A stretch of DNA of 64,000 nt, from sequence record PQ306574.1. One strand, written 5' to 3'. The notes below the pieces were generated by a model. The model was not told the origin of the DNA and searched no databases. It saw nothing but the letters and a program-made list of their open reading frames with translations. Position 1 is the first letter of the stretch. Each line of letters begins with the position of its first letter. Positions 25,704-31,763 of the stretch are shown here, in pieces. This DNA comes from Escherichia phage vB_EcoM_PTE-Eco09. The position numbers were made by a program, and so were the translations under genes.

Positions 25704-26168
25704 ATGACCCCGTTTAGAGAATCCGTTAAAGGTACATATGCGGCGGTTAAATTCACTGAGGATACACTAGACCGCATTGAAAAATTGCAGGAGTTCTACG
25801 ATCTGCCTAATGCCGTTCCTCGTGATAAACTGCATAGCACTATCTTATATTCTCGTGTCTATGTTCCGTTTATACCAGAAGAAGGTGAAAAGTTTTTAGG
25901 CTCTCTATGCCATCTGAAAGTGTTTGAAACTCAATCCGGTACTAATGCGCTTGTGTTGGCATTTGAAAGCGACTACATGCAATTCAGACACGATATAGGC
26001 ACTGCTTTAGGCGCGACGTGGGATTATCCTGAATATGTACCGCATATCACGCTTTCTTATGATGTTGGTGCGCGTAAATTTGGCACTGACCTAGAGTTCG
26101 ATTTAGAGATTGTCCGATCTCATGAGTATGTCGAAGATCTAGACCTGGAGTGGACGACCAAACTGTAA
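25704..26168 (+). CDS. 57B: 2H phosphoesterase-like protein (57B-like)
   Basis: Two H-x-T/S-x motifs (LHSTILYS and PHITLSY) typical of the 2H/LigT family; position after 57A. Confidence 0.55.
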   Translation: MTPFRESVKGTYAAVKFTEDTLDRIEKLQEFYDLPNAVPRDKLHSTILYSRVYVPFIPEEGEKFLGSLCHLKVFETQSGTNALVLAFESDYMQFRHDIGTALGATWDYPEYVPHITLSYDVGARKFGTDLEFDLEIVRSHEYVEDLDLEWTTKL

Positions 26169-26175
26169 TTCTATG

Positions 26176-26206
26176 CCCCGAAATTTTTTCGGGGTTTTTT
26201 GTTTTT
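26176..26206 (+). terminator. Rho-independent terminator
   Basis: CCCCGAAATTTTTTCGGGG hairpin followed by TTTTTTGTTTTT. Confidence 0.7.
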
Positions 26207-26277: not shown

Positions 26278-26655
26278 ATGATGATGATGTTTAAAGATAA
26301 ATTCGAATGTCACTACACCCGTAACTTTGACTTAGTATCCCGCTACTACATTCATAAAGAAACTGGCACGCAAGTAGTTCTTGAATCTCACAGCGAAGTA
26401 GGATTCGATTCAACAAAAGTAGCAATTAGTGCTCGCTTCTGGGATAACGGCAAATTTGCTTATATCGCTTGGAACGACGACGAAAATGTAATTACAGTAG
26501 CTTTCGGTGATGACTACTACACTAAAAAGACTTTCGATAGTAAGCCATCAAATGAATACCTGAAAGCGTATGTGCAGCACATGTTCCAACGTGTTCTGAC
26601 CGGAATGGAAATCAATGTCATGAAAGACATTGTAGACGAAGTAAAATTTTCTTAA
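26278..26655 (+). CDS. Hypothetical protein
   Basis: ORF trimmed to the first ATG after the promoter and AGGAGA RBS (the track N-terminus ran through the promoter). Confidence 0.55.
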   Translation: MMMMFKDKFECHYTRNFDLVSRYYIHKETGTQVVLESHSEVGFDSTKVAISARFWDNGKFAYIAWNDDENVITVAFGDDYYTKKTFDSKPSNEYLKAYVQHMFQRVLTGMEINVMKDIVDEVKFS

Positions 26656-26661
26656 AAACAG

Positions 26662-26690
26662 TTGACAACATGAAACGGGGGTAGTAAGAT
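26662..26690 (+). promoter_or_regulatory. Early promoter module with stem-loop over the -10 box
   Basis: TTGACA-N17-TAAGAT; inverted repeat GGGGGTA/TACCCCC (26677-26696) spans spacer and -10. Confidence 0.6.
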
Positions 26691-26721
26691 ACCCCCACAA
26701 ACAAACGAAAGGAGAATCAAG

Positions 26722-26880
26722 ATGAAATTTATCGGTAAAACTTTTATGTTCGTAGCTGGTACTCTGTTTACTGCAACTCTGTTAGCTGGTGGCTTAGATA
26801 TCTTTACTGCATTTGAAACTTTCGGGTATACTGTAGCATCGGGTGCTCTCTTCGGATTGGGTTTAGCGATTAGCAAATAA
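26722..26880 (+). CDS. Small hydrophobic protein (52 aa)
   Basis: ATG after AAGGAGA RBS; MKFIGKTFMFVAGTLFTATLLAGGLDIFT..; not in the ORF track (under 60 aa). Confidence 0.5.
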   Translation: MKFIGKTFMFVAGTLFTATLLAGGLDIFTAFETFGYTVASGALFGLGLAISK

Positions 26881-26889
26881 GGTGATAAT

Positions 26890-27084
26890 ATGGAATTGGA
26901 TATGGTTAAAGCAAAATTTATGGGTAAGGATAAGAGCGGTAAAACATTTGTTATTAATAGAACATTGTTTCGCTCTGACCTTAAGTGGGTAACACAACAA
27001 TTTGCGGAAGTCAACGAGGCAGTTGTGACATGCTTCGTTGATGATAAAAAAGTTTTTGAAATTGATCGTCGTGGGGGTGTCTAA
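26890..27084 (+). CDS. Hypothetical protein (64 aa)
   Basis: ATG with AAGGTGA RBS. Confidence 0.5.
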   Translation: MELDMVKAKFMGKDKSGKTFVINRTLFRSDLKWVTQQFAEVNEAVVTCFVDDKKVFEIDRRGGV

Positions 27085-27281
27085 TGATCACTAAACTGTT
27101 TAGCAATACTTTGTTTCTGATTGCATTTGTTTTCTTTCTGTGTCTGATGATCGGTGTTGTTACAGTAGGTAGCTATTCCGGTGTTACCTTAGATGATTTT
27201 TGCCAACTTGTTTTAGTCTCGTTTATACCTAGTATTCTGCTCGCTTTATGTGGTGCTTTCAGATGGCTCTGTGATCTATGA
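27084..27281 (+). CDS. Small membrane protein (65 aa)
   Basis: Hydrophobic N-terminal stretch, GGGGGTG RBS. Confidence 0.5.
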   Translation: MITKLFSNTLFLIAFVFFLCLMIGVVTVGSYSGVTLDDFCQLVLVSFIPSILLALCGAFRWLCDL

Positions 27282-27384
27282 ATGAACAGGAACGAATGAT
27301 GTTGATAGGTGGACCGGAGTTCACTAAATTTGATGCAATTCTTATTGCGTTGGGTTTTCTTATGATCTGTTGTATGGTGGCGCT

Positions 27385-27609
27385 ATGAGTAGCATAAAAT
27401 ATTTTGCTTTCTTGTGTTTTATGATGTTCTTTACATTCTTAGCATGTGTTTTCTTTACATGGCTTGCTCATGTTGATAATGCAACCGGACCGTTTTACTT
27501 CTTCTGTGTGTTGTCTGTGTTGACTGGTGCTCTTGTTACGTGGATGATTCGAGATTGTTACGTAATGTATAAGTTTGAAAAGACTCGACCGAAATGGGGC
27601 AAACGATGA
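27385..27609 (+). CDS. Small membrane protein (74 aa)
   Basis: ATG with GGTGG RBS (the track start at 27370 is TTG); two hydrophobic segments. Confidence 0.45.
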   Translation: MSSIKYFAFLCFMMFFTFLACVFFTWLAHVDNATGPFYFFCVLSVLTGALVTWMIRDCYVMYKFEKTRPKWGKR

Positions 27610-27788
27610 AATTATTTGCGTGGCTAATTATTTTAAATGTAATTGTTAAGACCGTTCTCGCTGGTTTACTGATGATACATAGCACGAAACCAGAAGAAGC
27701 ATTAACGTATTTTGTTGCTTATGTGCTGGGATTCTTGCTTACTGCGTGGATGTGTGATGAATATCGAAGAATTGAGGTAAAACCATGA
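27606..27788 (+). CDS. Small membrane protein (60 aa)
   Basis: ATGA start/stop overlap with the upstream ORF; hydrophobic. Confidence 0.45.
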   Translation: MKLFAWLIILNVIVKTVLAGLLMIHSTKPEEALTYFVAYVLGFLLTAWMCDEYRRIEVKP

Positions 27789-28003
27789 AAATGACTTTTT
27801 ATATCTTAGCAAGTATCATGCTTGTGATCTCTTCTGCACTATTTGCATTTCTTACCGTTTGGGGGATCTGTACTGATGCGAAGCCGTGGGATATCGTAGA
27901 AAATACGGTTATGTTCATTATCAGTGTCATGTGTCTTTTTGATGCGTTTAACTCTATCAAGGAAGAAGATCAAAAACGTCGCGAGAGAAAGCGATATAAA
28001 TAA
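27785..28003 (+). CDS. Small membrane protein (72 aa)
   Basis: GAGGTAA RBS; hydrophobic core and basic C-terminus (KRRERKRYK). Confidence 0.5.
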   Translation: MKMTFYILASIMLVISSALFAFLTVWGICTDAKPWDIVENTVMFIISVMCLFDAFNSIKEEDQKRRERKRYK

Positions 28004-28152
28004 TAGTGAACTAAAGACAGCGCGGTTAGAATGATTTGGACGTCACCTAGCCGCATTTATTACAGCGTATGGGGTGACCCGGTACGCTAAAGCATTCACT
28101 TGCTAGGCCGCTAGCAGGTTGGAGACAAGGAAGATTCGCTACCTTCCCTATA
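28004..28152 (+). ncRNA. Candidate structured non-coding RNA
   Basis: About 150 nt with no ORF on either strand and several inverted repeats (GTCACC/GGTGAC, CTAGGCCGCTAG, GGAAG..CTTCC), ending at the terminator at 28153. Confidence 0.25.
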
Positions 28153-28178
28153 AGCCACTCTTCGGAGTGGCTTTTTTA
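28153..28178 (+). terminator. Rho-independent terminator
   Basis: AGCCACTCTTCGGAGTGGCT hairpin followed by TTTTTT. Confidence 0.65.
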
Positions 28179-28204
28179 TTGCCTAAAATTTTTTAAAAAA
28201 GTTG

Positions 28205-29572: not shown

Positions 29573-29755
29573 ATGAAAAAGATTAATTGGTTAGCGAACA
29601 TAGGCGCGGTCTGCGCCTTTAACATCCTCGGATGGATAATGTTACATTTTGATGAGCGAGTTTCAAAATGTGAGGGTGTATTGATTCTCGGATCTGCTAG
29701 CATATTCATTATGCTGTATGCAATTGCTGTTGACTTAAGCCGCGATGGTTGTTAA
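29573..29755 (+). CDS. Small membrane protein (60 aa)
   Basis: TAAGGT RBS; two hydrophobic segments. Confidence 0.5.
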   Translation: MKKINWLANIGAVCAFNILGWIMLHFDERVSKCEGVLILGSASIFIMLYAIAVDLSRDGC

Positions 29756-29808
29756 TATGACGCTCAAGAATATGTTTTTTTAACTTCGTAGGTGCTTCCA
29801 TTCTTTCA

Positions 29809-29955
29809 ATGCTATATCTTGTGATTGTATGGATGGGCGACTATGAATTAACTAACGATGAAAATTTGACAGTGTTTACTGTCTTGACGATGATCATTTA
29901 CACTGTCTTTCTTGTCTTGGATTTTATTGTGTTTCTTTACAAAACGGTGACTTGA
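29809..29955 (+). CDS. Possible small hydrophobic protein (48 aa)
   Basis: ATG ORF filling the gap between neighbours; weak RBS. Confidence 0.3.
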   Translation: MLYLVIVWMGDYELTNDENLTVFTVLTMIIYTVFLVLDFIVFLYKTVT

Positions 29956-30152
29956 TGACGATTAGTAAAAATGATATTGGTTTTGTTGCGGGTATCGCTA
30001 GCGTCTTTACTGTTGTTATTTTGCTAATGCTTTTACCCGGTGTATTCTCTGACCAGATTGAATTGTATGTAGCTTTTATCTGTTGCATTTATACTTGGTT
30101 TGCAATGTTTGTGATTAGTCTAATTATGCAATTCGTCGTTAACAAATTTTAG
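29955..30152 (+). CDS. Small membrane protein (65 aa)
   Basis: ATG with ACGGTGA RBS (the track start is TTG). Confidence 0.45.
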   Translation: MTISKNDIGFVAGIASVFTVVILLMLLPGVFSDQIELYVAFICCIYTWFAMFVISLIMQFVVNKF

Positions 30153-30767: not shown

Positions 30768-30926
30768 ATGGTTGAACAAATGTTAACTTCAATGGTAATG
30801 GCTTTCTGTATGGTTGTTGTTATGATTGCAATGATCCCTAAAGAGAGAATGAATCTTCTTGTAGCTGTCTGTATGGGCGTTGTTTGTGGATGGTTTGGGA
30901 TCGCGCTAGAAGAAGCTCTGCGTTGA
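30768..30926 (+). CDS. Small membrane protein (52 aa)
   Basis: ATG with AAAGGTG RBS; MVEQMLTSMVMAFCMVVVMIAMIP..; not in the ORF track. Confidence 0.45.
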   Translation: MVEQMLTSMVMAFCMVVVMIAMIPKERMNLLVAVCMGVVCGWFGIALEEALR

Positions 30927-30934
30927 TTAACAAA

Positions 30935-30970
30935 GCGGGTAGTACATTCCACTACCCGCACTAATTTATC
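30935..30970 (+). terminator. Hairpin (possible terminator or RNA stability element)
   Basis: GCGGGTAGT-ACATTCC-ACTACCCGC 9-bp stem; weak U-run. Confidence 0.35.
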
Positions 30971-30987
30971 TCGCTGGAGGGCTTTCT

Positions 30988-31176
30988 ATGGCGTTTTGTC
31001 TATGGTTGCTTATAGTATGCTTTGTAATGGGTTTATGCTTCTATACTGGCGTATTCTGTTTTGTCGCCTGGATAGACGGCGGTTTCTCTAATATCATTTT
31101 GCTTGCCGGATCAATTGCCTCGTTTCTGTTGATATGGCTTTTTTCTTATTTGTTTGGTGAATGGGATTTATTATGA
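30988..31176 (+). CDS. Small membrane protein (62 aa)
   Basis: TGGAGGG RBS; hydrophobic. Confidence 0.5.
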   Translation: MAFCLWLLIVCFVMGLCFYTGVFCFVAWIDGGFSNIILLAGSIASFLLIWLFSYLFGEWDLL

Positions 31177-31352
31177 ACAAATATATGTTTTGGGCGACCC
31201 TTGCCTATGTTGTGATTGCGGTAGTATGGGGATTCTGTGTTATTGTCGCTTCTCTGATCTGGTGGGAATCACTTGGCGCGGGTTGTCTTATTAGCGGCGC
31301 ATCATGTCTTATCACTGGCGTGATTGTTGGTTTTCTTGTGTCGGAGGATTGA
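31173..31352 (+). CDS. Small membrane protein (59 aa)
   Basis: ATGA overlap with the upstream ORF; hydrophobic. Confidence 0.45.
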   Translation: MNKYMFWATLAYVVIAVVWGFCVIVASLIWWESLGAGCLISGASCLITGVIVGFLVSED

Positions 31353-31354
31353 CA

Positions 31355-31570
31355 ATGGTTTTCTTCGGTCTTATTATAATGGTGCTTAATGTCATTTGTG
31401 GCGTTGCTATGTTAGCTATGGCCTTTACTGTTCCTATGTCTGTTGACAGCGCCGCGTCAGTAGGTGTGTTGGGAATTGTAAACCTGTTTACTGCCATAGC
31501 ATGTTGGATCACCGGACGCGATGAGGTAATGTATTACTTTTATAAACGTAAACAGAGAAAAGGAAAATAA
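31355..31570 (+). CDS. Small membrane protein (71 aa)
   Basis: ATG with GGAGGA RBS; hydrophobic. Confidence 0.5.
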   Translation: MVFFGLIIMVLNVICGVAMLAMAFTVPMSVDSAASVGVLGIVNLFTAIACWITGRDEVMYYFYKRKQRKGK

Positions 31571-31571
31571 T

Positions 31572-31763
31572 ATGAAATTTGCATTTGGTTTTACCGTGAT
31601 GTTGATTATTGCTCTGAGTATGTGTACCGGAATGCTTGTCTTTGGCTTAACAAACGGATTTAGCATTTATAATAATCCGTGGGTTGATTGTGGAATGGTT
31701 GTCGTTAATGCTATCCTTATTGGTGCTAATACAAGAACTCTATGCAGGATCGCCGGAATCTAA
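31572..31763 (+). CDS. Small membrane protein (63 aa)
   Basis: ATG; hydrophobic; directly upstream of the endolysin. Confidence 0.5.
   Translation: MKFAFGFTVMLIIALSMCTGMLVFGLTNGFSIYNNPWVDCGMVVVNAILIGANTRTLCRIAGI

Follow-up and report, generated by a model that had tools for sequence, protein, structure and literature searches.

Seven conserved small genes in a hyperplastic region of Krischvirus genomes: the antitoxin gene dmd and six genes for genus-specific predicted membrane proteins

The cluster of very small ORFs at 26722-28003 (plus strand) in a stretch of 64 000 nucleotides from Escherichia phage vB_EcoM_PTE-Eco09 (sequence record PQ306574.1; the whole stretch is referred to here as the window) is made up of seven real, conserved genes, one encoding the antitoxin Dmd and six encoding genus-specific predicted membrane proteins. 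The cluster is not new: its members are the hypothetical genes RB49p118-124, which have been present in GenBank from the RB49 record onward and are represented in the PHROGs, and the type of cassette that they occupy has been published. The window is from a Krischvirus (RB49-like Straboviridae, T4-type coliphages) and shares 99.7-99.8 % identity with LF73P4 and ECD7. When positions 26600-28200 were used as the query, 58 phage records were matched, all of them Krischvirus (94.6-99.8 % identity, LF73P4 and ECD7 being the nearest), and no DNA-level match outside this genus was found among phage records. Neither tRNA genes nor Rfam families at gathering score were found in the window. The features considered are listed below.

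25704-26168, plus strand: Acb1 (the 57B-like gene), anti-CBASS 2H phosphoesterase (Pfam PF23474, 174.3 bits, cut-off 27)
26656-26721, plus strand: PeSL cassette, with early promoter, stem-loop, common 5' leader and Shine-Dalgarno (SD) sequence AAGGAG
26722-26880, plus strand: o1, 52 aa, Gly/Ala/Thr-rich, two hydrophobic helices, strong SD (RB49p124; phrog_16462)
26890-27084, plus strand: dmd, 64 aa, soluble antitoxin (discriminator of mRNA degradation; Pfam PF17587; phrog_2102)
27084-27281, plus strand: o3, 65 aa, predicted two-transmembrane (TM) hairpin, 4 Cys (RB49p122; phrog_17225)
27278-27388, plus strand: o4, 36 aa, one predicted C-terminal TM helix (RB49p121; phrog_15282)
27385-27609, plus strand: o5, 74 aa, predicted two-TM hairpin, basic C-terminal tail (RB49p120; phrog_15290)
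27606-27788, plus strand: o6, 60 aa, predicted two-TM hairpin (RB49p119; phrog_15717)
27785-28003, plus strand: o7, 72 aa, predicted two-TM hairpin, highly charged C-terminal tail KEEDQKRRERKRYK (RB49p118; phrog_15168)
28004-28151, plus strand: 3' untranslated region, ~150 nt, structured and near-invariant
28152-28180, plus strand: intrinsic terminator, a 9-bp stem followed by a T run (annotated in GEC-3S, G5211 and Makalu_001)

A preliminary description of this region, made from the sequence, had counted six or seven small hydrophobic ORFs, some of them shorter than 60 aa, mostly with a single hydrophobic helix and linked by ATGA overlaps. There are seven (52, 64, 65, 36, 74, 60 and 72 aa), all on the same strand and back to back, and o1 and o4 are below 60 aa. 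They span 1273 of the 1282 nt between 26722 and 28003. Coverage by plus-strand ORFs was 99.9 % and was not equalled in any of 1000 dinucleotide-preserving shuffles, for which the mean was 42 % and the maximum 84 %. The hydrophobic character holds for o1 and o3-o7 but not for the second ORF (26890-27084), which is dmd and has a hydrophilic product (GRAVY -0.26). The single helix was described correctly only for o4, as o1, o3, o5, o6 and o7 each have two. ATGA overlaps are found at four junctions (o3/o4, o4/o5, o5/o6 and o6/o7), whereas dmd and o3 are joined by TAATG. An SD-like motif lies at a suitable distance before six of the seven starts, the exception being the first ATG of o4, and that of o6 is a GGGG located 6 nt 5' of its ATG at 27606. 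The overlapping and abutting starts and stops are consistent with translational coupling.

The region upstream of o1 had been described as a promoter module at 26662, and this was borne out. A -35 box TTGACA (26662-26667) and a -10 box TAAGAT (26685-26690) are separated by 17 nt, and the promoter is annotated in GEC-3S. A 9-bp G/C stem-loop at 26675-26698 lies between and over the two boxes. PeSLs are composite early-promoter and stem-loop cassettes of the hyperplastic regions of RB49 and Phi1 (Arbiol et al. 2010, PMC2839356), and the element in the window has each of the defining features, namely sigma-70-like -35 and -10 boxes, an adjacent G/C stem-loop, an intergenic location in a hyperplastic region and a position 5' of ORFans. 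It aligns with four neighbouring cassettes, which have the leader and SD in common with it. As this PeSL promoter lies 5' of o1 and a terminator follows the 3' untranslated region, after which the next PeSL begins at ~28195, we infer that o1, dmd and o3-o7 constitute one early operon of the Krischvirus hyperplastic region, the function of the promoter and terminator being deduced from the sequence and from published PeSL assays. The 3' untranslated region has a predicted minimum free energy of -65.7 kcal/mol (z -4.9) and retains 94.5-100 % identity even where the adjacent o7 has diverged to 82-84 %. No Rfam family corresponds to this region, which was found in Krischvirus only and could be a stable RNA or serve to stabilise the mRNA. 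Variation within it is centred on one apical loop, and one GC to AU compensatory change was seen.

The second ORF is, from its sequence, Dmd, a member of the antitoxin family that acts against the host RnlA/LsoA RNase toxins. It belongs to Pfam family PF17587 (58.9 bits, cut-off 27), matches phrog_2102 with an E value of 1e-31 and shares 46.7 % identity with T4 Dmd across 60 aa; in the other direction, a T4 Dmd query retrieved the RB49 orthologue (45 % identity, E 9e-14). In T4, dmd is conditionally essential on hosts with RnlAB (bioRxiv 10.1101/2025.11.20.689424). A homopolymer polymorphism (G5 or G4) at 27073-27077 moves the end of dmd, giving a product of 64 aa (ending RRGGV) in the window, JSE, G5211 and SSG23 and one of 67 aa in most other relatives, and the overlap between dmd and o3 is 1 nt or 11 nt according to this tract.

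For the six remaining products, the membrane assignments were made using hydropathy and two AlphaFold models built from shallow alignments (o1 and o7). Two separated hydrophobic segments are seen in the hydropathy profile of each of o3, o5, o6 and o7, those of o3 being at approximately residues 1-36 and 34-65. The AlphaFold2 models of o1 (helices 3-22 and 27-50, pLDDT 69.7) and o7 (helices 2-29 and 34-71, pLDDT 80.6) are both helical hairpins. All of the hairpins are alike in charge, with a basic N-terminus, an acidic loop of 8-12 residues and a basic or mixed C-terminal tail. From this charge distribution and the positive-inside rule, the five hairpins are predicted to lie in the inner membrane with both termini inside and short acidic periplasmic loops, and the sixth protein to have a single C-terminal helix. 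Lipoprotein signal peptides were considered for the small ORFs and rejected, as inspection of the sequences revealed no lipobox.

The start of o4 is ambiguous. The ATG at 27278 overlaps the end of o3 in an ATGA and gives 36 aa, while that at 27296 is preceded by an AGGA SD and gives 30 aa. As the first ATG reads ATA in Phi1 and an AGGA precedes the second, the true product may be the 30-aa one. In RB49, o4 is annotated as 41 aa from an ATG farther upstream; in the window, a stop codon interrupts that extension. The most variable member of the set is o3, for which there are two allele classes. These differ chiefly in the second helix, which includes ...LVLVSFIPSILLALCGAF... in one class and ...LVFFSSVPTLLIAVCGAF... 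in the other. The two-allele pattern suggests recombinational exchange inside the cassette.

Conservation of the reading frames across relatives, put forward in the preliminary description as a check on the cluster, was found for all seven ORFs, which are intact in 15 genomes (14 sampled Krischvirus and the window). The polymorphic sites in these genomes are mostly at third codon positions. In-frame pN/pS values were 0.07 for o1, 0.20 for dmd, 0.54 for o3, 0.39 for o4, 0.08 for o5, 0.25 for o6 and 0.09 for o7. As all of the relatives are close, each ORF contributes only tens of substitutions to these tests. Off-frame values were above the in-frame value for most of the seven, those for the other two frames being mostly >1. 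Three more divergent relatives, a 170-kb ENA contig (L016), a Logan contig (L018) and an IMG/VR contig (L020), also retain the seven frames, with no indel within the aligned ORFs. Here pN/pS was 0.13-0.76 relative to L016 and 0.07-0.48 relative to L018, and the ranges across comparisons were 0.27-0.39 for o4, 0.07-0.13 for o5, 0.25-0.48 for o6 and 0.09-0.24 for o7. In L016, o5 starts with GTG in place of ATG and the overlap is retained as GTGA. Using tblastn, each of the six hydrophobic ORFs was found in all 58 Krischvirus records. Apart from Dmd, the encoded products are small, restricted to the genus and subject to purifying selection. The L016 cassette shares 74-92 % nucleotide identity with that in the window (pS 0.26-0.60) and the flanks share 95-98 %. 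Divergence of the cassette above that of its flanks, together with the two o3 alleles, would be typical of arms-race genes or of shuffled accessory genes.

Two antisense ORFs were considered as possible genes and rejected, namely one of 120 aa at 26652-27014, over o1 and dmd, and one of 53-85 aa over o7. Both are broken or of another length in relatives.

These data bear on whether the cluster is dispensable selfish cargo, that is, PeSL-bounded ORFan cassettes kept by recombinational mobility without benefit to the phage, or even non-functional ORFs that are hydrophobic owing to their T-rich sequence. PeSL cassettes have indeed been proposed to shuffle ORFans (PMC2839356), the T content of the ORFs is 34-44 %, and homologues are absent outside the genus. 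However, the cluster is fixed in 58 of 58 genomes, none of which has lost it or interrupts it by a frameshift or stop, pN/pS for o1, o5 and o7 is well below 1, and the overlaps and SDs are conserved while antisense and off-frame ORFs are not, and we consider this explanation very unlikely.

Searches for relatives of the six hydrophobic ORFs outside Krischvirus retrieved none. When the six were concatenated and compared by tblastn to 50,697 phage records (E<=1), only the 58 Krischvirus records were matched. When o7, o5 and o1 were searched in a word index of 5.8e9 proteins, no relative below 82 % identity was retrieved; this limit is that for o1, and the relatives of o5 were at least 97 % identical. 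A profile HMM of o7 run against 1.84e9 representatives found its own cluster only, and a Foldseek search of the o7 model against BFVD returned generic helical hairpins only, none at E<=1e-3. In the PHROGs, each of the six has a full-length match to one family only, its own, for which no function is listed, and no functional family was found for any of them in Pfam, NCBIfam, PADLOC or PHROGs. Of the PADLOC models of defence and anti-phage effectors, only that of a generic 4TM effector gave a match, to o3 at 10.6 bits (E 0.05), which does not place o3 in that family. Thus, no sequence similarity to characterised proteins was detected for o1 and o3-o7 using Pfam, NCBIfam, PADLOC and BLAST, nor any fold similarity for o7 using Foldseek. 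The searchable literature held nothing relevant on Krischvirus transcriptomics or on the function of these ORFs.

Clusters of this kind had also been described as often unannotated or mis-annotated and as able to encode membrane-active modulators. The six predicted membrane proteins may include such modulators. Incomplete annotation applies to two members of the cluster, o3 being unannotated in five of the 14 sampled relatives (ECD7, W115, kvi, KFS-EC and Brandy) and o4 in four (W115, kvi, KFS-EC and G2248), but not to the set, which corresponds in full to RB49p118-124 with one PHROG per ORF.

The cluster lies within the hyperplastic region between 57B and the endolysin gene, and an LPD25-domain gene is found downstream of it. 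Upstream is the 57B-like gene, followed by a terminator at 26175-26195. T4 57B is Acb1 (PMC9117128; bioRxiv 10.1101/2025.11.20.689424), and the gene in the window is labelled 'RNA ligase' in RefSeq records though its Pfam match is to Acb1. The dmd gene is ~700 bp downstream of Acb1, making this a small counter-defence neighbourhood. An (ATG)n repeat at 26278-26289 forms the start of the 125-aa gene that precedes the cluster, and its copy number ranges from 3 to 5 among relatives (MMM to MMMMM). Two more groups of small ORFs with pronounced hydrophobicity (48-88 aa, most with two helices and several with stop/start overlaps) are found at 29573-30152 and 30768-31763, up to the endolysin gene. 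In a census of RB49, ~14 of the ~20 credible small hydrophobic ORFs in its 164-kb genome were in this 5-kb stretch. An all-against-all BLAST of the 15 small TM ORFs in the window revealed no credible paralogy.

This location, with the endolysin gene terminating the same hyperplastic region, and the size and two-TM architecture, which are like those of class II holins and pinholins, raise the question of whether the six are lysis-timing accessories, such as holins, antiholins, pinholins or modulators of lysis inhibition. We regard this as improbable. The promoter is of the early sigma-70 type and not late, RB49 has a T4-type holin t, rI and the spanins pseT.2/pseT.3 elsewhere, and the cluster is separated from the endolysin gene by 4 kb and by several terminators. 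No holin family was matched at E<=0.1, and no Pfam, NCBIfam or PHROG function match places any of the ORFs among the holins or pinholins.

In T-even phages, the genes just downstream of dmd encode envelope proteins that act in superinfection exclusion: T4 and JS98 have the order dmd-61.4-sp, and JS09 has dmd-61.4-imm.1-imm-sp. Pfam confirms the presence of Imm and Spackle at this T-even locus (56.9 bits for JS09 Imm and 150.9 bits for T4 Sp); the function of Spackle has been described (PMC7677548). In the RB49 genome, no imm or sp is annotated and no Imm, Sp, Imm.1 or 61.4 was found using tblastn and phmmer, the best E values being 0.83 (Imm) and 0.08-0.15 (Sp), compared to 1e-14 for Dmd. RB49 nonetheless carries Dmd, rI, t, rIIA and rIIB. 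In the window, o1 and o3-o7 did not match the Imm family PF14373 at E<=0.1, with nothing better than E 0.3 by BLAST or phmmer, nor the Spackle family PF25676, and BLAST against Imm, Imm.1, Sp and the 61.x proteins of T4, JS98 and JS09 found nothing.

A role in counter-defence or exclusion is suggested by position and architecture, namely by Acb1 being upstream, Dmd being co-transcribed, an LPD25-domain gene being downstream, the linkage of dmd to imm and sp in T-even phages, the lack of detectable Imm and Sp in RB49, the divergence of the cassette and the two allele classes of o3. That the six proteins are an accessory host-interaction set acting at the inner membrane early in infection, with an Imm-like action the likeliest and the blunting of abortive-infection effectors as the alternative, seems to us evenly poised between right and wrong. 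Under this proposal, the PeSL sigma-70-type promoter would drive o1, dmd and o3-o7 early, and the products of o1 and o3-o7 would insert into the inner membrane and act in the first minutes of infection, joining Dmd and Acb1 in the accessory host-interaction arsenal of the phage. Their likeliest action would resemble that of Imm, with the infected cell made inaccessible to a second injection of DNA; alternatively, membrane-acting abortive-infection effectors would be blunted. Either might be achieved by a co-produced hetero-oligomeric set. The more specific proposal, that o1 and o3-o7 are a Krischvirus-specific inner-membrane module that replaces Imm/Spackle exclusion or neutralises membrane-acting abortive-infection effectors, and so are a new, sequence-unrelated class, is possible but doubtful.

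Several points count against a role in exclusion or counter-defence. Six different membrane proteins exceed what Imm-type exclusion needs, and the periplasmic loops of 8-12 aa are too small for inhibition of lysozyme in the manner of Spackle. The linkage to dmd is one of position, and dmd lies in another part of the genome in Krischvirus than in T-even phages. Hydrophobic codons arise from T-rich sequence alone, none of the six resembles Imm, Sp or another characterised protein in sequence, nor does the o7 model in fold, and known anti-defence proteins are mostly soluble.

The same hairpins could instead be a viroporin or membrane-remodelling set, in which translationally coupled proteins form a channel or a lipid-perturbing complex that changes membrane potential or transport and so serves host shut-off or membrane-linked phage DNA replication, and not defence or exclusion. 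The start/stop overlaps, which suggest stoichiometric co-production, the combination of five hairpins with one single-pass helix, expression from an early promoter and the gathering of most of the credible small TM ORFs of RB49 in one hyperplastic region would all suit such a complex. Yet there is no similarity to channel or transporter families, the small TM ORFs lack the paralogy expected of a repeated subunit, and the fast, mosaic evolution suits conflict genes better than takeover functions of a housekeeping kind. On balance, we think this reading rather unlikely.

If the exclusion or counter-defence role is correct, these would be the first membrane-hairpin factors of this kind from the RB49 group and would explain how RB49-group phages, which are relevant to therapy, cope without Imm and Spackle. 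The practical value is that all seven genes merit annotation, including o3 and o4, which are often dropped, with one of them to be named dmd and 57B to be named Acb1.

Among known systems, the closest counterpart of the second ORF is T4 Dmd (gene 61.5), to which it is linked by family and by identity. The locations differ, T4 dmd being between genes 41 and 61 and Krischvirus dmd following 57B/Acb1, and the C-terminus of the Krischvirus protein varies with the G4/G5 tract. The T-even imm and sp genes resemble the cluster in early expression, in encoding small envelope proteins and in being directly downstream of dmd. Imm, at ~83 aa with two TM segments and a charged C-terminal tail, is similar in form to o5-o7. 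However, the T-even locus supplies one or two such proteins and the Krischvirus cluster six distinct ones that share no sequence similarity with them, and Spackle has a periplasmic helical domain, which binds the gp5 lysozyme, whereas the six have nothing comparable.

The clustering of counter-defence genes into phage anti-defence islands is an established concept, and the presence of Acb1 and Dmd <1 kb apart among small unassigned genes is in keeping with it. Compared to known anti-defence inhibitors, the six Krischvirus proteins are atypical in being predicted membrane hairpins and in having no known anti-defence homologue. The PeSL and ORFan cassettes described previously (PMC2839356) come from the same phage group, have the same composite promoter and stem-loop element and are likewise in a hyperplastic region. 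They differ in that the published PeSLs are each associated with a single, variably present ORFan, while the PeSL in the window precedes a seven-gene unit that is fixed in all 58 genomes.
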